Shown here: piece after piece, positions 1,109 through 52,341 of the stretch
How positions within the stretch are numbered: the stretch's first letter is position 1
How the letters are laid out: each line of letters opens with the position of its first letter
DNA from: a virus
Lineage: Duplodnaviria; Caudoviricetes
Virus record (IMG/VR): IMGVR_UViG_3300023283_000076
Coordinates: 32,001-96,000 of that record
DNA length: 64,000 nt
Strand: one strand, 5' to 3'
The notes under the pieces: generated by a model
What the model was told of the DNA's origin: nothing
Seen by the model: the letters and a program-made list of their open reading frames with translations, nothing else
Database searches by the model: none
Program-made: the position numbers and the translations under genes

Positions 1109-1487
1109 TTTTAATAAGTGTTAAATATAGTTTATTCTTCTATGAAAACTTTGTACCCAAGAACAGGCCATCCGTAACACATATCTACCATGTGAAAGAG
1201 TATATCCTATATCGGAAAAAGTGTCAAGCCCTTTCTTTATTAATATTTTCTAAAAATATTTTTATACTATCATTGTGTTTCTGTACGGCAGCAACACCAA
1301 TTCCAATAGAAATTATCCACCCCCAAGATCATCGGGGTTTTCCAAAATTGTAAAACATTCATGCTCCATTAAAAAAAGTTTAAGGTAAAGTAAGCGGAAT
1401 TGCCTACATGTTTATATTAACAAATACTTCAAGGTCTGTCACCTTAATATACATTGAGTATTATCAAATTGAACAAGTGTCTTTAAT

Positions 1488-6213: not shown

Positions 6214-7218
6214 TTACTTAACCCAAGCCCATGTATCACCGTTGCGAATCTTACGAATTGTAGCTTCATCTACATTATACACATCTGCAATTCGTACAAT
6301 CGGCCATATACCCTCTGCCAGCAACTGTCTAATCCCCCTAACCTTATGTTCGTTCAGTTTACTTCGAGTTACACGAGAGTTTGGGGTTTCAACGTTGGGC
6401 TTTGGTTCACCCTCTGCGCCCTCCAAGTCTGTAAATTGATCGTCATCATCCAAATCACCATCAACATCACCATATTCGTCAGTATAAAACGAAGGTGTCA
6501 GCGTTTCATCGTTATAGAACTGATCTGAAATATCATCTACAACTTCATAAGCGCAAACACGCATCTTGGCATTATTATAATCTTTGGGAACCGCTACTAC
6601 ATCCTTTGGATGAACCTTGACAAGGAGAACTTTGTTCCCCGGTCCACTACCGAAACAAGGAAGATAACTACGGGAACATACATGCAATCCATAGGAACAG
6701 GTACGTTCAGAATCTTCGTCTACCTTGTTACGTGGAATTTCAACCTTAGTTCCTACTACATTACTAATAGTACCGCTATGAATATCGGTAAAGTCATTAC
6801 GAACTTTCTTGTATGCAAGGAAATGTCCATCGTTAGTAAAAGGCAAATCACATGCTTCCAAAAATTGCCTATACAATTCATTAACAACACGATAACTGTT
6901 GTCCATTAGATTATCCATGACCCGAAGCAACGGCTTGTAGGGATACCCATTAGCCCACAGAAAATGCAATCTATTAACAATTACATTATAGATTTCATCA
7001 CCATTGAAATACAGATTGTAACCATCAAAAGTAATACGTCCAGCGGATTCACTTTCAATGTTTGCCTTTGCATTCAGCAAACGGTCAAGACTATATTCAT
7101 CACCATTAGTGATCGCATCCATCACTGCATCAAACTGATCGGTTGAACGCGGAATTGTGTGAGCCTTACCATTCAAAACTACACACAAATTTTGTTCCGT
7201 CAAATTCCAAGCTAACAT
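6214..7218 (-). CDS. rIIB: RIIB-like lysis inhibition protein with C-terminal HTH
   Basis: YKKVR.DF.DIHSG, D...TCSYGLHVCS, KVHPKDVVAVP.DY...KMRVC.YEV; adjacent to rIIA. Confidence 0.88.
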   Translation of the reverse strand: MLAWNLTEQNLCVVLNGKAHTIPRSTDQFDAVMDAITNGDEYSLDRLLNAKANIESESAGRITFDGYNLYFNGDEIYNVIVNRLHFLWANGYPYKPLLRVMDNLMDNSYRVVNELYRQFLEACDLPFTNDGHFLAYKKVRNDFTDIHSGTISNVVGTKVEIPRNKVDEDSERTCSYGLHVCSRSYLPCFGSGPGNKVLLVKVHPKDVVAVPKDYNNAKMRVCAYEVVDDISDQFYNDETLTPSFYTDEYGDVDGDLDDDDQFTDLEGAEGEPKPNVETPNSRVTRSKLNEHKVRGIRQLLAEGIWPIVRIADVYNVDEATIRKIRNGDTWAWVK

Positions 7219-7277
7219 TTTATAAATCTCCTATTTATTTAACGAGTATATAGTATAACCTATAATTTAAGGAATTG

Positions 7278-9731
7278 TCAAGCAATTTCATCAATAATTT
7301 CCTTTGCAATCCTGACCGGATCAATCAGAATAGTATCAGAATTGAAACAATCAATAATTTTGCAATGATTCCCAATTCTACCTTCAACAAACAGATTTAG
7401 AAAAGTCTTTCTATTAGCTGGATTCTTGAGCATTTTTACAATTATCTTATGATTCTCCACCATAGAAAGAATAGGGATATTCAAACCCTTTAATTCCTTT
7501 TCAAGCTGTTCCATTGAAGTGGCAGAATTTAGGATGTTTTGAACATTCTGTTGAAGATTCAAAACATCATGCGTACCCAAATATGCCATTACATTCTTAA
7601 ACCTTTCCGGGTGCATCGAGCCTAGAAAATTTGACTTTTCTTTACCTGAATTATTTTTTTCATATTCAGCTTTCGATACAAAAACATCATCCAACCCAAC
7701 CAGTGTAATGTCCCGTTCAATCTTGATACTTTCAAGAATGTTAAACATCATTCTGTTCATGTTGAAGTGCATATGTATTCTATTTTCATACGCTTCAACA
7801 ATAGCATCATTAATACTGCTTCGGGCGGTCTTAATGATTTCATCCTTGTGAGTTTCAAAGTAATCCTTAACAGATACAAAATTGTTTGGATTCTTTTTCA
7901 ATGCACGTTTCATATCTTTTTCTGAAATACCGATACATGCATAATCATCAGACTTTTTAATTGCAACATAATTAAATATCAAATGTAGAATTTCAAATGG
8001 CAATCCAGTATCACCAATCTTATTGTTGTACGTATTGAAACATACAAGAGTCTTACCATTATAATCTTCGACGGTTTCTTCAAATTCTTGATCGCAACCG
8101 TAACTATACAATGTATTACTACTATTATTAAAAATTTGACTGTTCAGCCAGAACCAAGAACGCCTCTTACCACCAGTAATACTATGACCAGTAGACTTGG
8201 TATTACGTGACGGCATAGGAAGGCTAGATATTTTTGTAATATCTCCCGCAGCACCATCTAGAAACTTAATGAAGCTATTATACTTATCCTTCGGCAAATC
8301 AATAATTACAAATTTTCTACCAGACTCGACATCATTGAACGTTCTTGTAACATACGCATAATTTTCATCCTTGTAATAAACAGGATTATTCCCGAGAATG
8401 CGATTCAACACATTAAACGCAAATGGGGAATTTTCATAGTCAGGAGTGCCATTGGCCCTATTTGAATTAGACCATGAATAGTGTGATTCTTTCTTAGGCT
8501 TACCATTGATACAAGAATAATCAGATACTTCCAATTCCTTAAATTTTCTAGGAAGTTTCAAATTTAACAAATTGTTCCTATTAATATAAAACGGATTGTA
8601 CTTTTGATTGAATCGTTCCCTCGGCAGAAGCGATACCATGAACTCCGGCAAATCATTATACAAATTGTAAAACTCACCTTTTGAAGTAGCAAAAGCATCA
8701 TCGAGTTTATGCTTGATAGAACCAAACATTTTATTCCTAACATTATCTAGTGCAACGCAAATATTATGCATCGTTTCTTGAGTGTACGAGATACCTTCAC
8801 GACTGGCCGTAACTTCTACGGTACCAATAGGCATATCCATATATGCACCATAAATATTAAACCTACCGCATGTTCTACGGTTGAACGATTCAAGAAACTG
8901 AATGAAACGCTCGCCCTCATGTTGTGGGTTTCGAGCATAATATGGCAGATTCTTAGAACTTCCGGTTTTACTAATATGAGTAGTGTAATAGTCACGTATT
9001 AAATCAAAGTCTACTGGATATGCTACCGGACCCTGCTTGATAAAGAATCCATGCATAACATCATCATTTGATTGAAAGTACACGAACTCATCAATCTTAG
9101 CAATTTCCTTTTCAATCGTCGGCCATTCTACGTTAGCTTCCGGCTTTACCGGAAAGAAACGAAGCTGCTTTACCAAAGAATTTTTAAATTCATGGAAATC
9201 CTTTGGATCAATAGTTACTGTTACTTCAAGACCGTTAGGTTCATCAGTTTCTTCACCTTCATTGAACATGCTAATCTGTGGTAATCCCTCTTCAAGATAA
9301 GCATTATATACACGCTTCACACCCTTATGAATAGAAGTCACCATGAATGAATCAGTGTATGAAAACGGAGTCTTAGAACCGAGACCGAATGCGCCTACAG
9401 CATCATTGGCCTGATCCTTAGTAGAACCAAAGTACGTGGTATAGATACCTTCAACATCCTCATGGCTTAACCCCGGACCAAAATCACGAACCGAAAAGGT
9501 AGGATCAAAAGCATCCGGAAGCTTAACCTTAAAAGGCTTTTCAGGACACCCGGCTTCAACGTGAGCATCAAAAGCATTGCAGCTAATCTCACGAATGATA
9601 GAACCAATCTTATCCTTATAAAGAGTATCAGACAAGACACGAGCCACCTTAGCGTTCATATCCATCTTGAATTTTGCAACTTCTTTAAATCCTACGCCTG
9701 TAGCCTTATGGGTACTGATATTGAGCTTCAC
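7278..9731 (-). CDS. rIIA: RIIA-like protein (GHKL/Hsp90-like ATPase N-domain)
   Basis: IREISCNAFDAH, VRDFGPGLS, GAFGLGSKTPFSY, SREG.SY. Confidence 0.9.
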   Translation of the reverse strand: MKLNISTHKATGVGFKEVAKFKMDMNAKVARVLSDTLYKDKIGSIIREISCNAFDAHVEAGCPEKPFKVKLPDAFDPTFSVRDFGPGLSHEDVEGIYTTYFGSTKDQANDAVGAFGLGSKTPFSYTDSFMVTSIHKGVKRVYNAYLEEGLPQISMFNEGEETDEPNGLEVTVTIDPKDFHEFKNSLVKQLRFFPVKPEANVEWPTIEKEIAKIDEFVYFQSNDDVMHGFFIKQGPVAYPVDFDLIRDYYTTHISKTGSSKNLPYYARNPQHEGERFIQFLESFNRRTCGRFNIYGAYMDMPIGTVEVTASREGISYTQETMHNICVALDNVRNKMFGSIKHKLDDAFATSKGEFYNLYNDLPEFMVSLLPRERFNQKYNPFYINRNNLLNLKLPRKFKELEVSDYSCINGKPKKESHYSWSNSNRANGTPDYENSPFAFNVLNRILGNNPVYYKDENYAYVTRTFNDVESGRKFVIIDLPKDKYNSFIKFLDGAAGDITKISSLPMPSRNTKSTGHSITGGKRRSWFWLNSQIFNNSSNTLYSYGCDQEFEETVEDYNGKTLVCFNTYNNKIGDTGLPFEILHLIFNYVAIKKSDDYACIGISEKDMKRALKKNPNNFVSVKDYFETHKDEIIKTARSSINDAIVEAYENRIHMHFNMNRMMFNILESIKIERDITLVGLDDVFVSKAEYEKNNSGKEKSNFLGSMHPERFKNVMAYLGTHDVLNLQQNVQNILNSATSMEQLEKELKGLNIPILSMVENHKIIVKMLKNPANRKTFLNLFVEGRIGNHCKIIDCFNSDTILIDPVRIAKEIIDEIA

Positions 9732-16323: not shown

Positions 16324-17523
16324 TTAATTATATTCCGTTGCATTTTTTCTGTTCAAATAATCATCAGAAATAGATTTTAAAATCAATCGACCAATAGTAG
16401 TATCAGGAATTTCATATTCAAGAGGTTTAATTACAGCACCTTCCCGAATGTGAGTTCCTGTGATCGAATCCTTTCCATCAGTATATTGCCCTATTGTGCC
16501 ATAAAAAATTGGCCCACGATAAAGCTCTGGAACAGTTTCAATTCCAAATCCTTCCATAACTTTAAGCATGTTTTTGTATGGAAGATATTTACCCTTTCCG
16601 GGTTCGCCTATATAAACATCAAATACTCTGAAATTGGTTTCATTCAACCCATAATCTAAATCTTGAACAGCTTTTCCATATATTTCGCCAATGATATATA
16701 TCGGCTTATTTACTGACGCATCTTCTTTGAGACTTTCCGCTACTTCATAAATATCAAACCGCTCATGAAATTTCTTGAAGGCTTTCATATACAAATTGTT
16801 TGTATTAGCTTCATTATCCTTGAAAGCTAACCCCTTTGAAGAAAGTCCCTTTGAAGTTACAATACAATTAGTATACGGAATTTCTTCGTGAACAGGGTGC
16901 TCTTGCACTCGCTCTCCATTAACATAATAATAATTAGGCCATACACCAAAACAACACCATGTGCCATGAAGCTTTTCTGTAATAACACATTGAATACCTA
17001 AAACCTCTAATGCTTGCTCATATTGAGGATGATTCTTGATATTTTCAATATCATACTTCAAAGTCTTACCAGAAAGATTACAAACCTCACCACTCATCTG
17101 TGTAGGAATTTCAGGTTCCCATTTTACAATATATAAAAATTGAGAAACATCTGTCCCAATATCTTCTTCACCTACAGACATGGCTTCTTCCATACCATAT
17201 TCATTACACAAAATACCATCAACAATAGGATATAATAACCCTAAACTCGTCTCTCCACGAAGCTTAACAGCCTTTACACGATTACCTCTAGAACCAGCTA
17301 GTTTACCAATGCCCTTCTCTACATCCCATAAGTTCATGTCTTCTAAAATGTATCGAGGAACAAGAGTTTGCTCAGGAATGTATACAACAAGATCACCTTC
17401 ATTAAATTGACCCTTTTTAACAATACATTGATATCCCAATACATCAGCAAACTCTAATGCATCTGCATTAGGATGTGGACGAATCCTTTCGATTTTTTCA
17501 ATTGTCGCTTTTCTATCTGCCAT
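16324..17523 (-). CDS. RNA ligase, DRB0094/Rnl2-like family
   Basis: HPNADALE N-domain; TEKLHGT (motif I), GEIYG, FRVFDV, EGAVIK, LILKSIS..YL. Confidence 0.88.
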   Translation of the reverse strand: MADRKATIEKIERIRPHPNADALEFADVLGYQCIVKKGQFNEGDLVVYIPEQTLVPRYILEDMNLWDVEKGIGKLAGSRGNRVKAVKLRGETSLGLLYPIVDGILCNEYGMEEAMSVGEEDIGTDVSQFLYIVKWEPEIPTQMSGEVCNLSGKTLKYDIENIKNHPQYEQALEVLGIQCVITEKLHGTWCCFGVWPNYYYVNGERVQEHPVHEEIPYTNCIVTSKGLSSKGLAFKDNEANTNNLYMKAFKKFHERFDIYEVAESLKEDASVNKPIYIIGEIYGKAVQDLDYGLNETNFRVFDVYIGEPGKGKYLPYKNMLKVMEGFGIETVPELYRGPIFYGTIGQYTDGKDSITGTHIREGAVIKPLEYEIPDTTIGRLILKSISDDYLNRKNATEYN

Positions 17524-17527
17524 ATAG

Positions 17528-18655
17528 TTAACTCGCTTTTTCAAACCATGGTATTTCTAATTCGTTAAATCTCTTAAGCTGTCCGTCATCATAATATTCA
17601 ATTTTATTTTTATATTCATATCCATCAGAATCTTTACGATGAATCAAATTATTATTCGAATCAAATTCTTTCCAATATTCATATCCATCAGAACTTTTAC
17701 AATGAATCAAATTATTATTCGAATCATATTCTTTCCAATATTCAACTTCATCGGAACTTTTATAATGAATCAAATTATTATTCGAATCATATTCTTGCCA
17801 ATATTGAAATCCATTAGAATTCTTATAATGAATTACATTATTATTGGAATCAAATTCTTGCCAATATTCATATCCATCAGAATTCTTATAATGAATCAAA
17901 CTATTATTGGAATCATATTTTTTCCAATATTCAACTTCACCAGAATTCTTATAATGAATCAAATTATTATTCGAATCAAATTCTTGCCAATATTCATGCC
18001 CATCAGAGTGGTTATAATGAATTAAATTATTATTGGAATCATATTTTCTCCAAGATTCTATACCATCAGAATTCTTAAAATGAATTAAATTATTATTGGA
18101 ATCATATTTTCTCCAAGATTCTATACCATCAGAATTCTTAAAATGAATTACATTATTATTCGAATCAAATTCTTGCCAATATTGAAATCCATCAGAATCT
18201 TTATGATGAGTCAAATTATTATTCGAATCAAATTCTTGCCAATATTCATGCCCATCAGAATCTTTACGATGAATCAAATTATTATTCGAATCAAATTCTT
18301 TCCAATATTCATATCCATCAGAACTTTTACAATGAATCAAATTATTATTCGAATCATATTCTTTCCAATATTGAAATCCATTAGAATTCTTATAATGAAT
18401 CAAATTATTATTGGAATCATATTTTTTCCAAGATTCTATACCATCAGAATTCTGATAATAAATCAAATTATTATTCGAATCAAATTCAATGCTATCTTTA
18501 TTATTCTTTAACCACCTGACATAATCTTTATGATCACCGTTAACTTGATCTAATAACTCAAGCGGAAATCCAATAAGATTATTATTTTTTACAAATTCAA
18601 CAGCACTAGTACATGCATCGCGTTCATTTAAAAATTTTTCAGTTAATGTATTCAT
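17528..18655 (-). CDS. Tandem 21-aa repeat protein (beta-repeat, YD/MORN-like)
   Basis: ~14-15 repeats of (E/K)(Y/F)DSNNNLIH(Y/R/F)K(N/D)SDG.EYW.; 63-bp DNA period. Confidence 0.85.
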   Translation of the reverse strand: MNTLTEKFLNERDACTSAVEFVKNNNLIGFPLELLDQVNGDHKDYVRWLKNNKDSIEFDSNNNLIYYQNSDGIESWKKYDSNNNLIHYKNSNGFQYWKEYDSNNNLIHCKSSDGYEYWKEFDSNNNLIHRKDSDGHEYWQEFDSNNNLTHHKDSDGFQYWQEFDSNNNVIHFKNSDGIESWRKYDSNNNLIHFKNSDGIESWRKYDSNNNLIHYNHSDGHEYWQEFDSNNNLIHYKNSGEVEYWKKYDSNNSLIHYKNSDGYEYWQEFDSNNNVIHYKNSNGFQYWQEYDSNNNLIHYKSSDEVEYWKEYDSNNNLIHCKSSDGYEYWKEFDSNNNLIHRKDSDGYEYKNKIEYYDDGQLKRFNELEIPWFEKAS

Positions 18656-28228: not shown

Positions 28229-30697
28229 GTGAAGCTCAATACCAGTAACTATAAGGCTACAGGCGCAGGATTTAAAGAAGTCGCAAAATTCAAGATGGAC
28301 ATGAACGCTAAGGCGGCTCGTGTTTTGTCTGATACTCTTTACAAGGATAAAATTGGTTCTATCATCCGTGAGATTAGCTGCAATGCTTTTGATGCTCACA
28401 TTGAAGCTGGGTGCCCTGAAAAGCCTTTTAAGGTTAAGCTGCCGGATGCTTTTGATCCTACCTTTTCGGTTCGTGATTTTGGACCGGGTTTGAGCCATGA
28501 GGACGTTGAAGGTATCTATACCACGTACTTTGGTTCTACTAAGGATCAGGCTAATGATGCTGTAGGCGCATTCGGGCTTGGTTCTAAGACTCCGTTTTCA
28601 TACACTGATTCATTCATGGTAACTTCCATTCATAAGGGTGTGAAGCGTGTATATAATGCTTATCTTGAAGAAGGGTTGCCACAGATTAGTATGTTCGGCG
28701 AAGGTGTAGAAACTGATGAGCCTAATGGTCTTGAAGTAACAGTAACTATTGATCCAAAGGATTTTCATGAATTTAAAAATTCATTGGTAAAGCAGCTTCG
28801 TTTCTTTCCAGTAAAGCCGGAAGCTAGTGTAGAATGGCCGACGATTGAAAAGGTAATTGCTAAGATTGATGGATTCATGTACTTTCAGTCAAGTAATGAT
28901 ATTATGCGTGGGTTCTTTATCAAGCAGGGTCCGGTAGCATATCCAGTAGATTTTGATTTGATTCGTGATTATTACACTACCCATATTAGTAAAACCGGAA
29001 GTTCTAAGAATCTGCCATATTATACTCGAAACCCGAAAAATGAAGGTGAACGTTTTATTCAGTTTCTTGAATCGTTCAATCGTCATTCATACGGTAGGTC
29101 TAATAATCATGGTGCATATATGGATATGCCCATTGGTACAGTAGAAGTTACTGCCAGCCGTGAAGGTATCTCTTACACTCAAGAAACGATGCATAACATT
29201 TGTGTTGCATTAGATAACGTTCGGAATAAAATGTTTGATTCTATCAAGCATGAGCTTGATGATGCTTTTGCTACTTCAAAAGGTGAGTTTTATAATTTGT
29301 ATAAGGATTTGCCGGAGTTCATGGTATCGTTTCTGCCGAAGGAACGGTTCAATCAAAAGTATAGCCCGTTTTATATTGATAAGAATAATACTTTTACTTT
29401 GAAACTTCCTAGAAAGTTTAAGGAGTTGGAAGTATCTACTTACAATACCATTAATAGTACGCCTAAGAAAGAAGCGCATTATTCATGGTCTAATTCAAAC
29501 AATCCTAATGGCAATGCTGACTATGAAAACTCTCCATTTGCGCTTAATGTATTGACGCACGTTCTTGGCGGTACTTCGGTTGGAGGTACTTCGGTTTACT
29601 ACAAGGATGAAAGTTATGCATTTGCTACAAGAGCGTATAATGATGCCGATACTAGAAAAATTGTAATCATTGAATTGCCAGAGGATAAGTACGATAGCTT
29701 TATTAAGTTTTTAGATGGTGCTGTGAAAAATATTACAAAGATATCTAGCCTTCCTATGCCGTCACGTAATACTAACTCTAGTAGTCATAGTATTACTGGT
29801 GGTCAGAAACGTTCTTGGTTCTGGTTGAACAGCCAAATTTTTAATAGTAGCAGTTTAACTAACACTTTGTATAGTTATGGTTGCGATCAAGAATTTGAAG
29901 AAACCATCGAAGATTATAATGGTAAGACTCTTGTATGTTTCAATACATTCAATAATAAGATTAGAGACACTGAGTTGCCATTTGAGATTCTACATTTGAT
30001 ATTTAATTATGTTACACTTAAAAAGTCTGATGATTATGCATGTATCGGCATTGCAGAAAAAGATATGAAACGTGCATTGAAAAATAATCCAAACAATTTT
30101 GTATCTGTCAAGGATTACTTTGAAACTCATAAGAGTGAAATCATTAAGGCAGTCCGAGACGGTATTAATGAAACTATTGTTGAAGAGTATGAAAACAGAA
30201 TGCGTAGGCATTTCGACGTAAACAGAATATTTAATACTCTTATGAATATCAAGATTGATCGAAGTATTACATTGGTTGGTCTGGATGATATTTTCTTATC
30301 GAAAGATGAGTATGAAGATAAGTCAGGTAGAGCGAAGCCAAGTCTCTTAGGTTCGATGCGCCCGAATAGTTTTAGGGACGCAATGACATATTTGGGTACG
30401 CATGATGTTTTAGACCGTCAACGGGATGCGCAAAAAATCCTAAATACTCTTGCCTCAATGGAACAAGTTGAAAAGGAATTAAAGGGTTTGAATGTTCCTA
30501 TTGTTTCTATGGTCGATAACCATAAGAAAATCGTAAAAATGTTTAAGAATCCAGTTAATAGAAAGAATTTTCTAAATCTGGTTATTGAAGGTAATATTGG
30601 AAATAGTTGCAGAATCTCTGACTATTGTTTTGATCCGAATACTATTCTGGTTGATCCGGTCAAGATTGCAAAAGAAATTATTGACGAAATTGCTTGA
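28229..30697 (+). CDS. rIIA: RIIA-like protein, second copy
   Basis: Same GHKL motifs as 7278..9731. Confidence 0.9.
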   Translation: MKLNTSNYKATGAGFKEVAKFKMDMNAKAARVLSDTLYKDKIGSIIREISCNAFDAHIEAGCPEKPFKVKLPDAFDPTFSVRDFGPGLSHEDVEGIYTTYFGSTKDQANDAVGAFGLGSKTPFSYTDSFMVTSIHKGVKRVYNAYLEEGLPQISMFGEGVETDEPNGLEVTVTIDPKDFHEFKNSLVKQLRFFPVKPEASVEWPTIEKVIAKIDGFMYFQSSNDIMRGFFIKQGPVAYPVDFDLIRDYYTTHISKTGSSKNLPYYTRNPKNEGERFIQFLESFNRHSYGRSNNHGAYMDMPIGTVEVTASREGISYTQETMHNICVALDNVRNKMFDSIKHELDDAFATSKGEFYNLYKDLPEFMVSFLPKERFNQKYSPFYIDKNNTFTLKLPRKFKELEVSTYNTINSTPKKEAHYSWSNSNNPNGNADYENSPFALNVLTHVLGGTSVGGTSVYYKDESYAFATRAYNDADTRKIVIIELPEDKYDSFIKFLDGAVKNITKISSLPMPSRNTNSSSHSITGGQKRSWFWLNSQIFNSSSLTNTLYSYGCDQEFEETIEDYNGKTLVCFNTFNNKIRDTELPFEILHLIFNYVTLKKSDDYACIGIAEKDMKRALKNNPNNFVSVKDYFETHKSEIIKAVRDGINETIVEEYENRMRRHFDVNRIFNTLMNIKIDRSITLVGLDDIFLSKDEYEDKSGRAKPSLLGSMRPNSFRDAMTYLGTHDVLDRQRDAQKILNTLASMEQVEKELKGLNVPIVSMVDNHKKIVKMFKNPVNRKNFLNLVIEGNIGNSCRISDYCFDPNTILVDPVKIAKEIIDEIA

Positions 30698-30756
30698 CAA
30701 TTGATTAAACGATAGGTTATACTATATACTCGTTAAACAAATAGGAGATTTATAAA

Positions 30757-31881
<1,125 letters not shown>

Positions 31882-31959: not shown

Positions 31960-32003
31960 TTTTAAATTGACATATTTAACAATAGGAATTATTAGATACC
32001 ATT

Positions 32004-32347: not shown

Positions 32348-32421
32348 GCCGGTATAGTTAAATGGTATAACGAGGGATTTGTAACCCCTAATTTGCAGTT
32401 CGATTCTGTGTACCGGCACCA
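32348..32421 (+). tRNA. tRNA-Thr(UGU)
   Basis: GCCGGTA/TACCGGC acceptor, loop TTTGTAA, TTCGATT, CCA. Confidence 0.85.
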
Positions 32422-42280: not shown

Positions 42281-42406
42281 GGGTGTGTAGCTCAGCGGTT
42301 TAGAGCGTCCGACTGTGGAAGTTGTGGGATACGTAGATCAGGTTCAACTCCTGAAACTTCAAAGGTAATCGGATGGTCGTAGGTTCAAATCCTACCACGC
42401 CCTCCA
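42281..42406 (+). tRNA. tRNA with ~49-nt insertion in the anticodon loop (possibly Asn GUU after removal)
   Basis: Perfect acceptor, D, T arms and TCCGA/TCGGA anticodon stem enclosing 56 nt instead of 7. Confidence 0.85.
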
Positions 42407-42410
42407 ATTT

Positions 42411-42701
42411 TTGACCCCCCTTCATGTTTTAGTTTGCCATACCTATAAAATCGAGAATAGTAATGTTAGTAAACAAACCTTAAAATCTAGATATTTGAAA
42501 CACAGGGAAACTCTTGACATTACTTTCGAATGTGATATAATAGACTGTAAAATATCAAAATGGTATGGTAAAAAATTGAATCTTCAATTAGATCATATCA
42601 ATGGTATAAATAATGATAACAGGTTGAAAAATTTAAGATTACTTTGTCCTAATTGCCATAGTCTAACGGAGACATTTGCAGGGCGAAAGAAATTACAATA
42701 G
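42411..42701 (+). CDS. HNH endonuclease (probably N-terminally truncated)
   Basis: LQLDHINGINNDNRLKNLRLLCPNCHS. Confidence 0.8.
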   Translation: MTPLHVLVCHTYKIENSNVSKQTLKSRYLKHRETLDITFECDIIDCKISKWYGKKLNLQLDHINGINNDNRLKNLRLLCPNCHSLTETFAGRKKLQ

Positions 42702-42786: not shown

Positions 42787-42860
42787 GACAGGATGCCAGA
42801 GTGGTAATGGGCGTGGTTGCAACCCACGAGTCGAGGGTTCGATTCCCTCTCTTGTCTCCA
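42787..42860 (+). tRNA. tRNA-Cys(GCA)
   Basis: CGTGG-TTGCAAC-CCACG; U73; CCA. Confidence 0.92.
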
Positions 42861-42870
42861 AAGTTTCAAT

Positions 42871-42948
42871 GGTGAGTGTGGCGGAACTGGTAGACGCACC
42901 TGACTGTGAATCAGGCACTTGTGGGTTCGAGTCCCATCATTCACCCCA
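42871..42948 (+). tRNA. tRNA-His(GUG) with encoded G-1
   Basis: CCTGA-CTGTGAA-TCAGG; G-1:C73. Confidence 0.93.
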
Positions 42949-42954
42949 ATTTAA

Positions 42955-43027
42955 ACAAGACTGGTCCTCGCATGACTGTCCCGATAGTAAGAGCAAAGGT
43001 CGTTAATTGATTTGCCACCAGTCTTGT
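42955..43027 (+). repeat. 73-bp stem-closed element, copy 1 (copy 2 at 49582-49653)
   Basis: ACAAGACTGGT...ACCAGTCTTGT; two near-identical dispersed copies. Confidence 0.9.
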
Positions 43028-43043
43028 ATTTTCTTTAAACATA

Positions 43044-43118
43044 AAAATCATCCCGTTCGGGATGATTTTCTATTATTATCTGTTATTTTAATTGAATCAT
43101 CCCGAACGGGTTGATTTC
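43044..43118. terminator. Two related hairpins at the convergence of the + tRNA cluster and - genes
   Basis: AAAATCATCCCG-TT-CGGGATGATTTT and GAATCATCCCGAACGGGTTGATTTC. Confidence 0.65.
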
Positions 43119-43396
43119 ATGTTTATAATTTAATTACGCATTTCCTAGATAGTACTCTACTGGCGGCGCTTCTACACTAAAATCTGGTTCTTGCATTTTT
43201 TGCTGATTTTCTGCGCACTCATTAAACATTTTAATATGTTTTAATGCGCTGTCTAACGCATCTTTAGTTTTTTTCTTCATCAGTTAAAGGTTCACCATTA
43301 GAAGTACCTTTTCTAATATCAAGACTTTTGGACGCACCAGTAGTAGCCATAGCCATCCAATAATGTGCATAGAGTTCATGCATTTTCTTTTGATCT

Positions 43397-43687
43397 TCAA
43401 TTTTCATTAGTGTATCCTCTCATCCATTCTACGATACCTATAGCCCATTTCTTACCATAATCAATATGGCCATATGCATTACTTTCATATCGTTCAATTA
43501 TATTTAGGGTAGGTTCTTTTAGATTGTCTCTTTTAGCTATTTCACAAGCTTTTCTATAAACAGCAATCCGTTCACGTTTAATCCACTCATTAGAATGATA
43601 TTCTCTATGTTTTGCTACATCTTGAAAAGTATCATACAGTTCTGTAGTAATAGAATCATGTGTCGGTCTGAAAAAATCGTGTTTCAT
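43397..43687 (-). CDS. Hypothetical phage protein
   Basis: ORF track; A.GHIDY..KWA motif. Confidence 0.75.
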   Translation of the reverse strand: MKHDFFRPTHDSITTELYDTFQDVAKHREYHSNEWIKRERIAVYRKACEIAKRDNLKEPTLNIIERYESNAYGHIDYGKKWAIGIVEWMRGYTNEN

Positions 43688-43902
43688 TATTTATCTCGCT
43701 GTTGAGCTGGCATAATTGCATCACATACTGCATGAGATGCCCCATTTTCGCATGTGGAAATTGTGACTAAAACAATAATAACCATGATAGGAACTATAAT
43801 TATGAATATCATTGGAAGATATCCAAGACCAGTCATAATATTTCCTACAGTATTGTCCAGAAAACTTCCTAACTGCTTGATATTTTTAAAATTATCACCC
43901 AT
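43687..43902 (-). CDS. Small membrane protein
   Basis: One TM segment; RBS AGGA. Confidence 0.65.
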   Translation of the reverse strand: MGDNFKNIKQLGSFLDNTVGNIMTGLGYLPMIFIIIVPIMVIIVLVTISTCENGASHAVCDAIMPAQQRDK

Positions 43903-43973
43903 TTCATTTGTTTCCTGTATTTAATGATTAATTATAATAACATATATATTTGTGGATGTCAATTGGAGGAAGG

Positions 43974-44064
43974 TGGAGGAAGGTGGAGGAATCGAACCCC
44001 TATCGGCTCTTCACCGATACCCCGGATTTCAAGTCCGGTTGCCAGCCACTTAGCGGCACCTTCC
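43974..44064 (-). tRNA. tRNA-Ser(UGA) with 8/4 acceptor/T-stem fold
   Basis: GGAAGGTG/CACCTTCC 8 bp, GGGG/CCTC 4 bp, long variable arm; last 10 nt tandemly duplicated at 43964-43973. Confidence 0.88.
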
Positions 44065-44088
44065 AGTATATTGCGTTATTTATAATGA

Positions 44089-44165
44089 TGGTACGGGTGG
44101 TGGGATTCGAACCCACACTGTGCGGATTTTAAGTCCGATCTCTCTGCCAATTGGAGTACACCCGC
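44089..44165 (-). tRNA. tRNA-Leu(UAA), short variable loop
   Basis: TCGGA-CTTAAAA-TCCGC; variable region ACAGT; CCA. Confidence 0.9.
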
Positions 44166-44173
44166 TTAAAAAA

Positions 44174-44740
44174 TCAATTCGTATCGTCTTTTTTACCTTT
44201 TAATTCTGGATATTTCTTATACATTTTAGAAACAAAATCATTTATTTCTCTATCTTCCTCTTCATTATAAAGCGGGGCTATTTTATCATTAGTTTTTTGT
44301 TGAAATTCTGTAATAGTATCAATGATATTTAATGCATTAACATGAATATGTTTTTCGACCAGTATTCTATCATATAATTGATTAATTGTGGTATCTAAAT
44401 ATTTACTTTTGTTAAACATGGATATAAGTTTAATAAGCCCATATGCAGACACTAAAACTAATACCAATTGCAATAATGTATTATCGCTACCATTGGTAAA
44501 CATAAGAAATATAAAACTAGAAACAATAATATAAAATATTTCTTTTGTATGATAAAGAATTTTATGTTTGAAAATAAAATCAAATTGATTTTTATGTAAC
44601 ATTGTTTGAGAATGAACCTGAGACCATAAATTATTTTTAATTAACGTGAGTTCTCTATCATTCTTGAGTGCTTCGGAGTTTTCGTTATTCTTTAAATTAT
44701 TTTCAATTGTATTAATTAGTTTCTTAACTCTTTTATTCAT
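44174..44740 (-). CDS. Two-TM coiled-coil protein
   Basis: ORF track. Confidence 0.75.
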   Translation of the reverse strand: MNKRVKKLINTIENNLKNNENSEALKNDRELTLIKNNLWSQVHSQTMLHKNQFDFIFKHKILYHTKEIFYIIVSSFIFLMFTNGSDNTLLQLVLVLVSAYGLIKLISMFNKSKYLDTTINQLYDRILVEKHIHVNALNIIDTITEFQQKTNDKIAPLYNEEEDREINDFVSKMYKKYPELKGKKDDTN

Positions 44741-44920
44741 TTCAAAACTCTTGTTAAAATAGTGTGTATAAATTGTACCATAAAAATACGAAAAAGCTAA
44801 TAGTGCATAACACTAAACAGCATTCTGGTAAATATTTTTTCATATTAATCCTATTATAAACATTCTAATTATAATTTATAAATTACAATTAGAGCATCCA
44901 ACCTAATCAGTTATTTATTT

Positions 44921-45154
44921 CTACGGCGAAATTTTGTTTCCCATATTATCTAAGATATAAACATGAGGAACATTTGCCATTCTAACTTCATGTTTATAAA
45001 AATCCAACATTTGTATAGATTCAAACATATTTGCCTCATTAACAATTCGATCATCTGAAATAATACGTGATGGATCAAACGAAACATGTGTGCCATATGA
45101 ATGAAATGTATAAGTAGAACGATTTTGTGATCTCTTACGTACAACTCTTTTCAT
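44921..45154 (-). CDS. Hypothetical protein
   Basis: ORF track; RBS AAGGGA. Confidence 0.6.
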   Translation of the reverse strand: MKRVVRKRSQNRSTYTFHSYGTHVSFDPSRIISDDRIVNEANMFESIQMLDFYKHEVRMANVPHVYILDNMGNKISP

Positions 45155-45287
45155 GTGTATAGTTCCCTTCTTTTTATAATTTAAGTTAATAATTAAAGTA
45201 CGTAGTTAAGTATGTAATTAACTACTCGTTAAGTATATATGAATACGGGCATGTATGTCAAACCATTAACGTATGCGTTAGCAGTTT

Positions 45288-45701
45288 TTAGTGTTTGATC
45301 CATGCAAAGCCATTATGTGTAATACATATTACGATATGCTTGAACAACCGTAAAATTAAAACTCCTTCATCACAATCTTCAACAATAATTTCACTACTTG
45401 GTATTATAAGGAATTTTTCTTTGATTGTTTTCAATTGTACATTTTCCATAAAATCTGGTGTAAGAATCTTGATCATTTTCTTCAACGCTTTATCAGCATC
45501 TGGTCTTGGAAGAATTGTATCATATCCTGTTCCTACACATTCAGGACATTCCCATTCATCATAAGAGATATCTCCTATATCAGCATTGTCTATATATCCT
45601 AGACCCATACATTCAAGACACTTTTTAGAGTTCAATTTATTTTTTTCTTTATTGTATAGACTAGTGTCTTTTTTCATAAAACACTCCATTTGTAAATCCA
45701 T
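45288..45701 (-). CDS. Protein with DnaJ-type CxxCxGxG zinc finger
   Basis: CLECMGLG...CPECVGTG. Confidence 0.65.
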   Translation of the reverse strand: MDLQMECFMKKDTSLYNKEKNKLNSKKCLECMGLGYIDNADIGDISYDEWECPECVGTGYDTILPRPDADKALKKMIKILTPDFMENVQLKTIKEKFLIIPSSEIIVEDCDEGVLILRLFKHIVICITHNGFAWIKH

Positions 45702-45707
45702 TGCAAA

Positions 45708-45848
45708 TGATTATCATTCTCTAAAAATTAATATTTAATTTACGAATACGAATCATTCGCATTAACTTGATTTCATATTTCACCCTTTAGTATAACAGAA
45801 AAAAAAATTAAATCAAGGGTTGACATTGTATGTATTATATGGTAAAGG
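45708..45848 (+). promoter_or_regulatory. Two Fur-box-like sites plus a TAAAGG promoter, homologous to 20460-20590
   Basis: TGATTATcATTCTCT (45708), TACGAATcATTCGCA (45747), TTGACA-N17-TAAAGG (45820). Confidence 0.6.
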
Positions 45849-46073
45849 TATTAAAATAGGAATTAAAAAAAGACTTGCATTCTTTTGGTGGATATGATAT
45901 ATTACACATTCGCATTCAAAATATTGGAGTTTAATACATGGAACATCGTTAATGGAGAAATATTCTGAAATGGTGTTTACCGAACCCAAGTAAAATAATT
46001 GTATATTGGTATTGACAACCGTATAATGCTGGTGTATACTGAGCACTCTCAACAATTAAACAGGAGTTAACAC

Positions 46074-46820
46074 ATGAAATTTGTCGTATATGAATCGGAG
46101 TCTGGTTGCAAGTTTCGTTGTACTGAGGCACAGCAAGAGACTCTGAGAAAGCTGGAAACAATCGTTAAAGGCGGTATTGGTACCGTTCATGGTTATACGA
46201 TGAAATCTGGCCGTGTGAAACCCGAAAAGGCCGATATCCAGTTTCTTACTGCATTCTCTACTGAGCGTCTTTATAAGCGTCGAATTGCAGCACTCGAATC
46301 TATCAGTTATGATGACATTGCTGATAATCTTCCAGACAATCCGAAGTTGACGAAACTGACAGAAGATGAGCGCAGAGAAGTGTTCAATACTCGCCGCCAA
46401 AAGGAAATCGAGAGTTATCAGAAGTCTCTTGATGGTGACCGTAGTGATTCGCATCGTCAAGCGCATGATCGGTGTTATTGTAAGATTGGACAAGGTGTTA
46501 AGGTTCACTATCGTACCGAAAAAGATGCTGATGGTATTCGCCAGCCGATTATGGTTAACGGTTTGCCTGTTGTAGAATCTATCATGCTGACGATTCTTGA
46601 AATCAAGCGTAAGGTAATCGAACCGGGCGAGTATAAGAAGGTCAATTCTGGCGCTCCGGTGCTTATCTCTAATACGATTAAGTCTACCATGAATCTTCGA
46701 TCAGTCGGTCTTAAGACTCTTTCACTGAAAGAAGATAACTTCGACAGGCTTGTACTGGACAAGACGGAGTTTTTGCCTGAACAGGTTGAAACCATTCCGG
46801 CTGACTTGTTTATCCGATAA
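46074..46820 (+). CDS. Conserved phage hypothetical protein
   Basis: 248 aa; RBS AGGAG; own promoter. Confidence 0.85.
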   Translation: MKFVVYESESGCKFRCTEAQQETLRKLETIVKGGIGTVHGYTMKSGRVKPEKADIQFLTAFSTERLYKRRIAALESISYDDIADNLPDNPKLTKLTEDERREVFNTRRQKEIESYQKSLDGDRSDSHRQAHDRCYCKIGQGVKVHYRTEKDADGIRQPIMVNGLPVVESIMLTILEIKRKVIEPGEYKKVNSGAPVLISNTIKSTMNLRSVGLKTLSLKEDNFDRLVLDKTEFLPEQVETIPADLFIR

Positions 46821-46887
46821 AAGTTTGATATACTCCAAGGGTCAGTCGTTAATCGGCTGACCCATTTCTCAACACTTAGGAGAGCAA

Positions 46888-47193
46888 ATGAATAAACTTC
46901 AATTTAATACTGGTGGTGATGCATATGGTACGAGTTTGAGAGGATACGTCACGACTGTATTTGATCAACTCGTGGAAATTTTCGGGGAGCCTGAGCTTGG
47001 ACCCAATGCCGGTGATGATGACGACAAGGTTACGTGTGAATGGGTAATTACATTTGCCGATGGGGCAGTAGCTACTGTTTATGACTGGAAAACTGACGGC
47101 ACTCCAAAAACCTTGTATAATTGGCATATTGGTGGGATGAAAAACACTGACGTTGTAAATCGTATCAATGCATTGGTAAATAATTGTCTTTAA
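46888..47193 (+). CDS. Conserved phage hypothetical protein
   Basis: TSL.GY......LVE.FGEP...DKV..EW...ATVYDWK...WHIGG. Confidence 0.85.
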   Translation: MNKLQFNTGGDAYGTSLRGYVTTVFDQLVEIFGEPELGPNAGDDDDKVTCEWVITFADGAVATVYDWKTDGTPKTLYNWHIGGMKNTDVVNRINALVNNCL

Positions 47194-47216
47194 TTATAGA
47201 ACATGAGAATTGACAA

Positions 47217-47405
47217 ATGACAGAACGAAAAACATACATTTGTAATCATTGTGGTAGTGATGAAATACTCTTTGATGCATGGGTTGCATGGGATGTTGAA
47301 AATCAATGTATGAGCATCACTACAACAATGGATAAAGGGCATGTATGCGAGAATTGCAATGGTATATCTACTGATCCTATTGAAGTAAATTTAAAGGAAC
47401 TATGA
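47217..47405 (+). CDS. Small zinc-ribbon protein
   Basis: CNHCGS...DAW..WD...CENC. Confidence 0.75.
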   Translation: MTERKTYICNHCGSDEILFDAWVAWDVENQCMSITTTMDKGHVCENCNGISTDPIEVNLKEL

Positions 47406-47503
47406 TACTGGAACTCTTAAATGTACTCTCGGCAATTGCAGTAATCTTTGTTACAGGGATGATTGCAGGTGCTAAACTCATACTCAAATTGATGAAGAAA
47501 TAA

Positions 47504-47701
47504 ATGGAATTGAATCAATGTCAATATGGTGTTTTGGTTGAAAGCGAACATGGTGAAATTGGTATGATTGTTGGGATCACGAATAATGCAAAAAGCGCAG
47601 AGCTTTCTGTACGCAAGAAAAAAATTCATGCAATTCCAATAGTTCAATGGTCTTATGGAGAAACCAGCAGTATTCATTACGAAAACATCAAGAAACTCTA
47701 A
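47504..47701 (+). CDS. Small hypothetical protein
   Basis: ORF track. Confidence 0.55.
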   Translation: MELNQCQYGVLVESEHGEIGMIVGITNNAKSAELSVRKKKIHAIPIVQWSYGETSSIHYENIKKL

Positions 47702-47943
47702 TATTCTATTGAAAGGGGATAAGATAATTTTTATTCCTAACATAGAGCCTTTATCATATATTTTAAATAATGTCAAGAGTTTTTTTAGTTGACTTTTTGA
47801 GTATTCTATGATAATATTTTAAGAGTTTAAATAATGGAAACAATGAGGCAAAGTCATGTGTGTACATAAAGTCACGGTAAATTTAAATGTATTGAACCGT
47901 AAAAAAAGTTGACAATTGTTTCCCCATATGCGATACTACAGTT

Positions 47944-49344
47944 ATGAATGATAATATCCTAGTAGGAAAAGGCGAAGAGTCGCAAGTACATTTACTTGGA
48001 CAATATGCAAATCGTCATGGACTTGTTGCCGGTGCTACTGGTACTGGTAAAACTGTGACCCTGATGATGTTGGCCGAAGGGTTTTCCCGTATGGGTGTAC
48101 CTGTATTCATGGCTGACGTTAAGGGTGATATGGCAGGTTTGGCAATGCAAGGTAACGACAATCCAAAAATTCTCGAACGTGCTGAAAATATCGGTATTGA
48201 TAATTTTTCGTTTAATGGAAATCCTGTATCTTTCTGGGATTTATGGAACAATTCAGGCAATCCAATTAGAACGAGTGTCGAAAGTATCGGTGCCACCTTG
48301 ATGGCTAGAATGCTCGATGTTAGCGATGCTCAAGAAGGTGTATTAGATGTTGCATATCATTATGCAAGAGAACGTAATATTGCACTTAATACACTCAAAG
48401 ATTTTAGAGCTTTGCTGACGTACATGGCACAAAATAGAGAATTTATCAGCACCGAATATGGATTGATAAATTCAAATAGCATTGGAGCTATTCAGCGTCG
48501 ATTGCTCACACTGGAAAACGATGGAATCGATAATTTTTTTGGCACACCTGCATTAGAATTATCGGATTTTATGCGAAATCAAAATGGTAAGGGTATAATT
48601 AACATTCTTTCTGCCGAGAGTTTAATCTTGCGTCCTAGAATGTATTCTACCTTTTTGCTTTGGCTGCTATCAGAGTTGTTTGATAAGATGCCAGAGCTAG
48701 GTGATGTTGACAAACCTGAATTAGTATTTTTCTTTGACGAAGCCCACCTATTATTTGATGATTGTTCAGGTGCATTGCTTCGTAGAGTTGAACAAGTGGT
48801 GAGATTGATTCGTTCCAAGGGTGTAGGTGTATACTTTTGTTCGCAGAACCCTGATGATATTCCTGAGACTGTCCTAGGGCAGCTTGGAAATCGTGTTCAG
48901 CATGCTTTAAGGGCGTTCACGCCTAGAGACCAAAAGGCTGTTAGAGCGGCTGCTGAGACGTTTGTAGAGAATCCTAATTTTGATGTTGGTGATGTTATAA
49001 CCCGTCTAGGCGTTGGTGAAGCATTAACTTCAATGTTAGATGACAAAGGGATTCCGCAACCAGTTCAACGCACAATGATTTCTCCACCGCAATGTCGGCT
49101 TGGTACAATCAGCCATGAAGAGAGAATGCAAATTGTCGATAATGATTCATTGAAAAGAAAATATAGTAACGACAATAATGTAGACACTACTAATAAATAT
49201 GATCCACGGGATGACTTTGATGATACGATTGATTATTGGAACATTGAGCCATCAAAAAATATCAATCCTGAACCAGAGTCACCTGATAATTTTGTAACAC
49301 GGTTTATGAATGAATTTAGAAAAGCATTAATGTTTAAAAATTAA
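47944..49344 (+). CDS. HerA-like P-loop ATPase, DUF853/YjgR family
   Basis: ANRHGLVAGATGTGKT, DVKGD, FFFDEAHLLF, IRSKGVGVYF.SQNP.D.P..VL.QLGNRVQHALRAFTP. Confidence 0.9.
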   Translation: MNDNILVGKGEESQVHLLGQYANRHGLVAGATGTGKTVTLMMLAEGFSRMGVPVFMADVKGDMAGLAMQGNDNPKILERAENIGIDNFSFNGNPVSFWDLWNNSGNPIRTSVESIGATLMARMLDVSDAQEGVLDVAYHYARERNIALNTLKDFRALLTYMAQNREFISTEYGLINSNSIGAIQRRLLTLENDGIDNFFGTPALELSDFMRNQNGKGIINILSAESLILRPRMYSTFLLWLLSELFDKMPELGDVDKPELVFFFDEAHLLFDDCSGALLRRVEQVVRLIRSKGVGVYFCSQNPDDIPETVLGQLGNRVQHALRAFTPRDQKAVRAAAETFVENPNFDVGDVITRLGVGEALTSMLDDKGIPQPVQRTMISPPQCRLGTISHEERMQIVDNDSLKRKYSNDNNVDTTNKYDPRDDFDDTIDYWNIEPSKNINPEPESPDNFVTRFMNEFRKALMFKN

Positions 49345-49455
49345 TTAAAAACAAATGATCAGAAATATTGTCGAAAAAGTCTTGACAATCTTTGATAAAT
49401 AGATTAGACTGTAGTTGTGATGATAAATCACACATGTAAACAATACGATGAAAAA

Positions 49456-49558
49456 GCGGTGGACAAGAGTACATCGCGGGGCAACCCTACAGTATCGGCC
49501 ATGCTGATCCGGTGATGGTGACAAAGATACTGTGAGTCGGACGCCAAGCGACCGGCCC
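49456..49558 (+). ncRNA. Candidate ~100 nt structured RNA
   Basis: GC-rich; GGG-GCAA-CCC, TACAGTATC/GATACTGTG, GTCG/CGAC stems; upstream promoter. Confidence 0.45.
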
Positions 49559-49581
49559 AAAAAAATTCTCGTTAATAGAAA

Positions 49582-49653
49582 ACAAGACTGGTCCTCGCAT
49601 GACCGTCCCGATAGTAAGAGCAAAGGTCGTTAATTGATTGCCACCAGTCTTGT
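49582..49653 (+). repeat. 72-bp stem-closed element, copy 2
   Basis: Differs from copy 1 by one C/T change and one T indel. Confidence 0.9.
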
Positions 49654-49765
49654 ATTTTAAAAATGTCCTTTCTTGGGCGGTATATCAGCAACTATAAAAA
49701 GCGCGGGGATGGACAGCCCCTTAATAAATGATATATTAACCCTTTTTCTTTTCACCTATAGGAGA

Positions 49766-49795
49766 AAAGGCCCGATTCATTTGGGCCTTTTATTT
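49766..49795 (+). terminator. Intrinsic terminator
   Basis: AAAAGGCCC-gattcattt-GGGCCTTTT followed by T-rich tail. Confidence 0.75.
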
Positions 49796-51264: not shown

Positions 51265-51582
51265 ATGAAATCAATTGAAGAATGGAGCGCAACACGTTGG
51301 ATTTTTACCGCAATGGCATCTATCATTGCAATATCAGTATTTTTCTTTGTACTGGCATCTGCCGGATTGATCGGTGAAAAGGTGGTGGAGAGAGAAGTAT
51401 TTGAAAATAGTTTTCAATATAGTGAAGCACGAAAAACTGCCATCGCTACATATGAAGCACAGTTGGCTGAAATTGATTCCCAACTTCGAAGCACCAATCT
51501 TTCAGAACGTGAAAGAAGTAATCTACGCTCCCAAGCCGCCCGTCTAAGGGTTCTACTACAAACCGAAAGGAGAAAACAGTAA
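51265..51582 (+). CDS. Single-TM coiled-coil protein
   Basis: ORF track; N-terminal TM segment. Confidence 0.8.
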   Translation: MKSIEEWSATRWIFTAMASIIAISVFFFVLASAGLIGEKVVEREVFENSFQYSEARKTAIATYEAQLAEIDSQLRSTNLSERERSNLRSQAARLRVLLQTERRKQ

Positions 51583-51775
51583 TGAAAAATATTTTTAATG
51601 TGCTAGCCGCAGTAGTCGTCGTCTTTGTCATGGAATGGAGCGCAACACGTTGGATTTTTACCGCAATGGCATTTATCATTGCAATATCAGTATTTTTCTT
51701 TGTATTATCATCTGCCGGATTGATCGGTGAACCCGTCTAAGGGTTCTACTACAAACCGAAAGGAGAAAACAGTAA
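51582..51775 (+). repeat. Chimeric local duplication between two genes
   Basis: Start of the next gene + copy of 51280-51378 + copy of 51539-51581. Confidence 0.85.
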
Positions 51776-52341
51776 TGAAAAATATTTTTAATGTACTAGC
51801 CGCAGTATTCGTCGTCTTTGTCATGGCAGGCTGTCAAGATACGTCTACAACTGCCGAAAGTGAATCTGTCATGAAACAACAGAAGCAGATGCTTACTAGC
51901 CAGCCTATTCCATCATTCAACTGGTCATTGGAACGTGACCTTCTGATTCAGTTGTATAATATTCGTAATGAACGTGTCAGCACCCATAGTGTATGGCGCA
52001 GTAATCATGGAATGGTTGAAGGTGATTGTCCGTCTATTGGATATGGCATTCCCTATGATACTTCTTTGACCAACCCACAGCGAGCTACGGCCCAAGCTGC
52101 TGACAAACGATACACTTCTGAATCTCTAGCCACAATTGAACAAGCTGAACCTAATGGTATCTTCGCCAGTAAGAATACGGCAGCTACATGGGTATTCTGC
52201 GTGGGTAGTGCGGGGGCGTTGAATCCAGTATACGTCGAAACCAAGGTTACTGCATATCCGTATCCAGTTGAGGTTGATTATGAGACCAACAGGGTTACTC
52301 AAGCTGGTGAATCAAGTGTTAATGTGACAGTTAACCGCTAG
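51776..52341 (+). CDS. Phage lipoprotein
   Basis: MKNIFNVLAAVFVVFVMAGC lipobox-like; GYGIPY.T.LTNP, AEPNG.F motifs. Confidence 0.8.

Follow-up and report, generated by a model that had tools for sequence, protein, structure and literature searches.

The stretch of DNA analysed here, called the window throughout, comprises 64,000 nucleotides (positions 32,001 to 96,000) of IMG/VR record IMGVR_UViG_3300023283_000076, an uncultured virus of 270,653 bp belonging to the Caudoviricetes, and it carries two near-identical copies of a small element on its plus strand. The segment 42953-43032 is repeated directly at 49580-49658; copy 1 differs from copy 2 by a single substitution (T at 42977, C at 49604) and one extra T. 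The elements themselves occupy 42955-43027 (copy 1, 73 nt) and 49582-49653 (copy 2, 72 nt), and score 78.4 and 85.9 bits, respectively, with our covariance model R1. A search of the whole virus record with a covariance model located a third copy, which lies beyond the window on the minus strand (record positions 16935-17004; 1501-1570 of our locus L058) and has a 1-nt insertion in the otherwise invariant large loop and six uridines past the stem. Our analysis shows that the element is a real structured RNA family, supported by covariation, specific to phages, and so far uncatalogued.

Both copies in the window are built alike. A closing stem, P1, of 11 bp (42955-42965 with 43017-43027 in copy 1; 49582-49592 with 49643-49653 in copy 2) surrounds a 7-nt junction, J1/2, as delimited in our alignment A1 (42966-42972; 49593-49599), which leads into a 5-bp inner stem, P2 (42973-42977 with 42998-43002; 49600-49604 with 49625-49629), and a 20-nt loop, L2 (42978-42997; 49605-49624). 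Within L2 of copy 1, the sequence GCAA (42993-42996) pairs with UUGC (43012-43015), beyond P2 and an A-rich linker, J3 (43003-43011), the length of which varies among homologues; the corresponding strands in copy 2 are 49620-49623 and 49638-49641. An unpaired C (43016) separates the UUGC strand from the 3' strand of P1, after which a U-rich tract begins. The resulting helix order, A-B-K-B'-K'-A', is that of an H-type pseudoknot within a closing stem. The original prediction for this DNA had described two 72-73-nt copies with an 11-bp closing stem, an inner stem, and a complementary loop at these positions, all of which we recover, along with its remark that the T/C difference between the copies preserves the pairing of P2, as U.G in copy 1 and as C-G in copy 2.

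Comparison of homologues gives this fold its main support. Across the 35 copies in alignment A1, 98.7% of the cells at paired positions do pair and 144 cells have changed on both sides, values that none of 500 shuffles reached, and the signal is lost when the partners are slid by one to three columns. Trimming of the closing stem to its paired positions biases the outer P1 pairs in this count, but not the inner P1 pairs, P2, or the pseudoknot. RNAalifold, run unaided, recovers both nested stems. P1 changes freely in sequence and in length (5-24 bp overall, 20-24 bp in three lineages), pairs in every sequence of the alignment, and shows covariation in 11 of its 12 aligned pairs. The second pair of P2 changes from G-C to A-U in six sequences, and the pseudoknot, which had been put forward only as a possibility, covaries at its third pair, from A-U to G-C, in four sequences from at least three lineages, with a mismatch in just one copy (L014). 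A divergent member (L037) retains all the parts, adds another compensatory change in P2 (A-U to G-C), and carries an insertion of about 75 nt, forming two hairpins, in the linker J3 before the 3' strand of the pseudoknot, the only place in which a large structured insertion is tolerated. Covariation among homologues is thus found for P1, P2, and the pseudoknot.

In contrast to the freely varying closing stem, the interior of the element hardly changes. The central CUC of J1/2 is invariant, with the two bases that follow conserved in at least 90% of copies; L2 is invariant except for the one base that covaries with its pseudoknot partner; and two linker adenines and the two G-C pairs at the top of the closing stem are also fixed, making some 35 fixed bases in a core of about 48 nt. 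The homologues were gathered with exact patterns from the large loop, and the invariance of that loop is therefore partly built into the sample, whereas the junction, P2, the linker, the pseudoknot, and the closing stem were left free by the search patterns.

This pattern bears directly on whether the element could be a plain intrinsic terminator or could act as DNA, as a mobile element, a recombination site, or a nuclease site. A stem followed by a uridine tract in this phage would suit a terminator, and a reading frame resembling HNH endonucleases, located 250 nt ahead of copy 1 and found again in two further arrays, would suit a DNA-level role. However, an invariant "loop" of 50 nt would be useless to a terminator, and our terminator scan does not call the element. 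The 53 G.U cells in the alignment would be A.C mismatches on the opposite strand, and the strand of the element relative to nearby genes is constant (within 1.5 kb, 138 tRNA genes lie on the same strand as the element and 3 on the opposite one), which together indicate selection at the level of RNA. The original prediction had also raised the idea of a tiny mobile element, which fares poorly: the interior is invariant, the supposed inverted repeats vary freely, and each genome has one to three copies, the reverse of what is seen in a miniature inverted-repeat transposable element or in transposons in general, where the termini would be conserved. Its comparison to a terminator holds in part: a uridine tract comes after the stem in all three copies of this phage and in a few from elsewhere, but in many copies a tRNA comes immediately after the element. 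The covariation pattern thus largely refutes a terminator or a DNA element, and we regard either as very improbable.

The distribution of the element is wide, but restricted in kind. In a BLAST search against 50,697 phage records, the core was found only in the Rhodococcus phages Francesca and Dorin and in three Sulfitobacter phages (six records). Two tRNA-Lys genes flank it in the Rhodococcus phages, and the second of them begins 1 nt on according to ARAGORN and 4 nt on according to the record annotation, and in the Sulfitobacter phages it lies within a 510-nt region free of genes and tRNAs upstream of the terminase genes. Scans with exact patterns contributed a further 12 IMG/VR loci and 32 metagenomic ones, and one Sulfitobacter "plasmid" of phage size also carries the element. 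Looser patterns applied to viral sequences gained one true member (L049); the other new loci that they returned (L050-L055 and L065) were chance matches in coding DNA and were set aside. In all, there are about 40 distinct copies, from DNA of 35-59% G+C, and the core is almost identical, letter by letter, across Rhodococcus phages, Sulfitobacter phages, and uncultured viral and metagenomic contigs. Two scans with near-consensus core patterns found no match in prokaryotic genomes representing 185,579 species with one genome each. Except between close relatives, we found no conserved flanks and no second shared RNA. A look-up of sequencing runs listed no RNA runs with the locus and three DNA runs matching the stretch, all from one study, the third with only 8% of its words.

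Comparison with known RNA families also places the element on its own. Using Rfam 15, no family was found on the element, either at gathering thresholds or at E values up to 10, with the window, a 101-nt query, and four consensus-like members as input. At the same E value limit, there was no match to the models of the hepatitis delta virus (HDV) ribozyme, CPEB3, and other HDV-type ribozymes, nor to those of the hammerhead, twister, twister-sister, pistol, hatchet, hairpin, and glmS ribozymes. Neither ARAGORN nor Rfam calls the element itself a tRNA or a transfer-messenger RNA (tmRNA) in any locus. The core, searched as RNA or as DNA letters, occurs in no relevant searchable paper, the lone match in an aptamer paper being an unrelated primer, and a keyword search of the literature returned only work on theta ribozymes and general surveys. 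Several local resemblances, namely to an 8-mer of the RNase P specificity domain, the sarcin-ricin loop, the linker of the pistol ribozyme, and the UGGN/NCCA pairing of T-boxes, were considered and dropped, as each is contradicted by the covarying pseudoknot or by the remaining sequence. The element is therefore new as an RNA family outside every family tested, although the kind to which it belongs, small structured phage RNAs that are possibly ribozymes or aptamers, is known.

In this phage, copy 1 is the final RNA of a unit that consists of a promoter, tRNA-Cys, tRNA-His, the element, and a terminator. The sigma-70-type promoter-like site (42514-42541; 12/12 match to the consensus, on which alone its call depends) precedes tRNA-Cys (42787-42860; called by ARAGORN and Rfam) and tRNA-His (42872-42948, with CCA encoded; ARAGORN, and 58 bits with the Rfam tRNA model), which ends 6 nt before copy 1, and a hairpin with a uridine tract resembling an intrinsic terminator (43044-43069) follows 17 nt past the element. 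All of these features, as well as those around copy 2, are on the plus strand. Upstream in the same tRNA cluster, the HNH-like reading frame mentioned above (42411-42701, plus strand, 96 aa, weak match) probably encodes a homing endonuclease; similar frames are found in the tRNA arrays of L003 and of L010/L042, and this is the only protein gene that we found to be shared among neighbourhoods, with no conserved neighbouring protein gene otherwise. Just before it, the two tools disagree on the size of tRNA-Leu(CAA) (42281-42406, plus strand), with 123 nt according to Rfam and 96 nt according to ARAGORN, which suggests an insertion or a longer 5' part.

Copy 2 lies in a unit of a different composition. 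A promoter-like site (49382-49410; 10/12 match) precedes a candidate structured RNA of about 105 nt, which we call RNA-X (49456-49560; fold z = -2.95), then the element, and a terminator-like hairpin (49765-49791) closes the region. The original prediction, which placed each copy directly behind an RNA gene, thus holds fully for copy 1, with its tRNA-His, whereas copy 2 follows a foldable candidate RNA that we could not classify. RNA-X has no match in Rfam and no homologue among cultured phages, and neither RNA-X nor the element has blastn similarity to any E. coli genome, in a search for mimicry of an E. coli RNA. The third copy lies in an inverted, diverged duplicate of this entire unit (RNA-X, the element, a conserved downstream stretch, and tRNA-Lys). 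The two units are 93% identical across the 232 nt upstream of the element core, and over the roughly 105 nt of RNA-X they differ by 3 substitutions without gaps, making RNA-X more conserved than the neighbouring genes; both of the substitutions that fall in predicted stems turn G-C into G.U. The downstream stretch (49674-49760, plus strand) is more than 90% identical between the two units and contains a promoter-like site and a GGAG-type sequence resembling a ribosome-binding site ahead of the terminator. From its letters, either a small gene or a further RNA is conceivable here. The gene next to the copy-2 unit on its upstream side encodes a HerA-like DUF853 ATPase (47944-49344, plus strand; Pfam HerA_C, E = 4e-184).

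Duplication is also evident elsewhere in the window. A large, diverged inverted duplication (6217-9731 on the minus strand and 28229-31878 on the plus strand) contains two rIIA/rIIB gene pairs, with rIIA copies that share 81% protein identity, and tRNA-Met, tRNA-Val, and tRNA-Thr genes are mirrored at 1488, 5595, and 5691 (minus strand) and at 32348, 32431, and 38109 (plus strand). Either a jumbo phage truly carries this inverted duplication, or the contig is a head-to-head fusion of two related phages. At 51280-51826 (plus strand), direct repeats of 95-99 nt interleave; they are 96-98% identical and spaced by 353 and 193 nt. One family of these has a sequence resembling a ribosome-binding site and an ATG, and the repeats have the appearance of small genes that were duplicated. 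On the minus strand, 16327-17544 encodes a phage RNA ligase (phrog_968).

The expanded set of homologues places the element in a range of settings. Same-strand tRNAs are found within 1.5 kb of 27 of the 39 copies, and the remaining 12 have no tRNA within that distance. Fourteen distinct copies start 0-8 nt past a 3' end, that of a tRNA in 13 cases and that of the acceptor piece of a tmRNA in one (L027), and for about eight copies the 5' end of the next tRNA lies 1-14 nt past P1. The latter include two for which the tRNA carries an insertion of about 70 nt and is fully called only by Rfam. An association with tRNA-Lys, seen in about five lineages, is not above expectation. As regards the insertion-bearing tRNA genes (insertions of about 60-70 nt; 1334-1473 of L022 and 1305-1444 and 1603-1733 of L032, all on the minus strand), only the Rfam tRNA model matches them from end to end, while ARAGORN reports a part of at most 75 nt in L022 and none in L032; the insertions in L022 and in the first L032 gene have a common motif of about 19 nt at their start, and judging from the letters they may be introns.

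The recurrence of the element at tRNA 3' ends raises the question of whether it could be a small self-cleaving ribozyme of a new class that divides transcripts of several tRNAs, as has been proposed for theta ribozymes at tRNA 3' trailers. A core of about 48 nt, a pseudoknot, and invariant junction bases are all typical of small ribozymes, the 14 copies just past a CCA or tRNA 3' end, including the one in the permuted tmRNA loop, lie where an end needs to be exposed, and theta ribozymes offer a precedent for phage ribozymes at such sites (PMC10879173). However, as P1 ranges from 5 to 24 bp, its 5' base is at no fixed distance from the core, which makes cleavage at that base, the only site that would be useful to an upstream tRNA, geometrically unlikely, and a cut within the core would leave the tRNA tethered through P1. 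The 12 copies with no tRNA within 1.5 kb and the several copies that are the first RNA behind a promoter-like site also speak against it, as does the lack of a match to any known ribozyme model. The resemblance to HDV noted in the original prediction does not survive closer inspection either: the letters in question are present at 42965-42971 of copy 1, but the helix order is wrong, and a descriptor of the nested double pseudoknot of the HDV and theta fold (in the order P1-P2-P3-L3-P3'-P1'-P1.1-(P4)-J4/2, with the catalytic C, and P2') found 0 solutions in both copies, as against a mean of 2.7 in shuffled sequences. The fixed P1 of HDV-type ribozymes, of 6-7 bp with cleavage at its 5' base, likewise disagrees with a starting stem of 5-24 bp. 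Taken together, we consider a ribozyme of this kind unlikely.

The same abutment of tRNA ends could instead reflect a processing or stability element acting in cis, which would insulate tRNAs from misfolding, mark sites for host RNases (RNase III on a long P1, or RNase P or E at its base), or block exonucleases. The most striking setting in this respect is that of L027, a metagenomic tRNA-array contig that is presumably from a phage, in which the element makes up the whole intervening loop of a permuted two-piece tmRNA (775-1131, minus strand; 124.9 bits with RF04321 and 101.9 bits with RF01850), from the CCA of the acceptor piece to the first G of the coding piece, and thus fills a loop that is excised. 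The P1 of 20-24 bp in three lineages would be enough for RNase III, the element is 3'-terminal with a uridine tract in this phage, and the triple-stranded rod predicted from its topology would resist nucleases. Yet an insulator or a nuclease block would have no need for some 35 invariant bases across phyla, and the core is the same in phages of Actinobacteria and of Proteobacteria, two host groups with different RNases. Moreover, a genome with up to 35 tRNAs has only one to three copies, with most tRNA spacers lacking the element. We therefore regard a purely cis-acting role of this sort as rather unlikely as well.

A third possibility concerns the end of P1 itself. A uridine tract follows P1 directly in all three copies of this phage and in L009, L019, L028, and L040, which would allow a riboswitch-like cis regulator in which P1, once stabilised by a ligand, would govern termination at the tract or processing of a flanking tRNA. 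The P1-closed, pseudoknotted pocket would, by analogy, resemble aptamers of the c-di-GMP-II type. This is, however, difficult to reconcile with the absence of a consistent downstream gene and of an expression platform with alternative pairing, with the many copies that have a tRNA immediately next to them, and with the separate strong terminator 17 nt downstream of copy 1, so we think that regulation of this kind is quite improbable.

What these settings share is that the base of P1 coincides with natural RNA ends, whether tRNA 3' ends, tRNA 5' ends, the tmRNA loop, or uridine tracts, while the place of the element in the transcript is first, middle, or last, with or without tRNAs. Four loci (L009, L010, L029, and L044) have a good promoter-like site 6-35 nt ahead of the element, which comes first there. 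These varied positions point to a module whose own ends matter and not its neighbours, and in combination with the repeated coincidence of the P1 base with natural ends, they argue for a self-contained small RNA. Our preferred reading, which we hold tentatively and with somewhat less than even confidence, is that the element is a compact small RNA that functions autonomously. Processing of the tRNA type would excise it, or termination would end it, and it would bind a partner that distant bacteria have in common. The P1 stem, free in length and sequence, would enclose the H-type pseudoknot made by P2 and the helix between the loop and the 3' side, and J1/2 (7 nt) and the first 15 nt of L2, as invariant single strands, would wrap around the stacked helices to form a pocket. 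Phages would site the element where the host tRNA-processing machinery or plain termination frees it, such sites being the spacers of tRNA genes, the loop cut from a permuted tmRNA, the 3' terminus of a small-RNA operon, or a place behind its own promoter. The freed RNA may then bind, via its invariant pocket, a small molecule or a universally conserved host factor, and serve as an aptamer-like decoy or sponge and not as a signal for its neighbours.

That a discrete RNA is released, that it acts in trans, and that it has a partner are our inferences from several lines of evidence. The core is unchanged in phages of Actinobacteria, of Alphaproteobacteria, and of other hosts, low-G+C ones among them, while P1 and the flanks differ. 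Outside ribozymes, riboswitch aptamers, and RNAs docking on universal machinery, conservation to this degree is not normally seen. A conserved core with covarying stems is a trait of aptamers, and the insertion in the J3 linker of L037 is like the peripheral variable regions of aptamer and ribozyme families. Some considerations weigh against an autonomous, partner-binding RNA. A discrete, stable RNA is deduced here from sequence and context, and the evidence points to no single ligand. The tight abutment of tRNA ends and the site in the tmRNA loop would suit a processing role in cis equally well. The near-invariance of L2 is in part circular, given how the homologues were found, and some 35 fixed bases are more than most small aptamers need.

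Could the element then be an RNA with its own biochemical activity, carried across host phyla as a natural aptamer sponge or as the first member of a new ribozyme class? We think this conceivable, though on the unlikely side. In the aptamer version, the RNA would be made in amounts like those of tRNAs and would sequester a small molecule that is conserved, such as a nucleotide that serves as second messenger in anti-phage immunity, as an RNA counterpart of protein "sponges." Whatever the function turns out to be, it would bring a further class to the natural RNA folds whose biochemical role is defined, of which there are few. The element is small enough to be synthesised and probed within a day, and two of the host-phage pairs that carry it are culturable, making its function directly testable.

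Among known systems, the closest are riboswitch aptamers, two-piece tmRNAs, theta ribozymes, and the small RNAs of phage T4. Pseudoknot-type riboswitch aptamers such as c-di-GMP-II, preQ1-III, and SAM-II are closed by a P1 stem, and the element has in common with them a variable P1, an H-type pseudoknot with an A-rich third strand, and invariant junction bases that would line a pocket. In contrast to these aptamers, it matches no riboswitch in Rfam, has neither an expression platform nor a constant downstream gene, and lies among tRNA genes. The intervening segment of two-piece tmRNAs (RF04321 and RF01850) is exactly what the element fills in L027. In the Rfam consensus, however, this segment is short, AU-rich, and unstructured, so the element there is an insertion and not a part of the tmRNA. 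Theta ribozymes, which are minimal HDV-like ribozymes found next to phage tRNA genes and proposed to process tRNA 3' trailers (PMC10879173), are likewise small pseudoknotted phage RNAs that lie on the tRNA strand within a few nt of tRNA 3' ends, and a few consecutive bases in the element's first junction resemble loop L3 of HDV. They differ in that the order A-B-K-B'-K'-A' is not the nested double pseudoknot of HDV, and in that the closing stem of the element has no fixed length.

The tRNA cluster of phage T4 encodes two small stable RNAs, species 1 and 2 (rnaC/rnaD), which are not tRNAs, are co-transcribed with tRNAs, and have no known function. The element is likewise encoded in tRNA clusters on the tRNA strand, in 27 of its 39 copies; it differs from species 1 and 2 in being half their size, without sequence similarity to them, and conserved across phages of different bacterial phyla. 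A function for this family would help to explain the old puzzle of why phage tRNA clusters contain RNAs that are not tRNAs.

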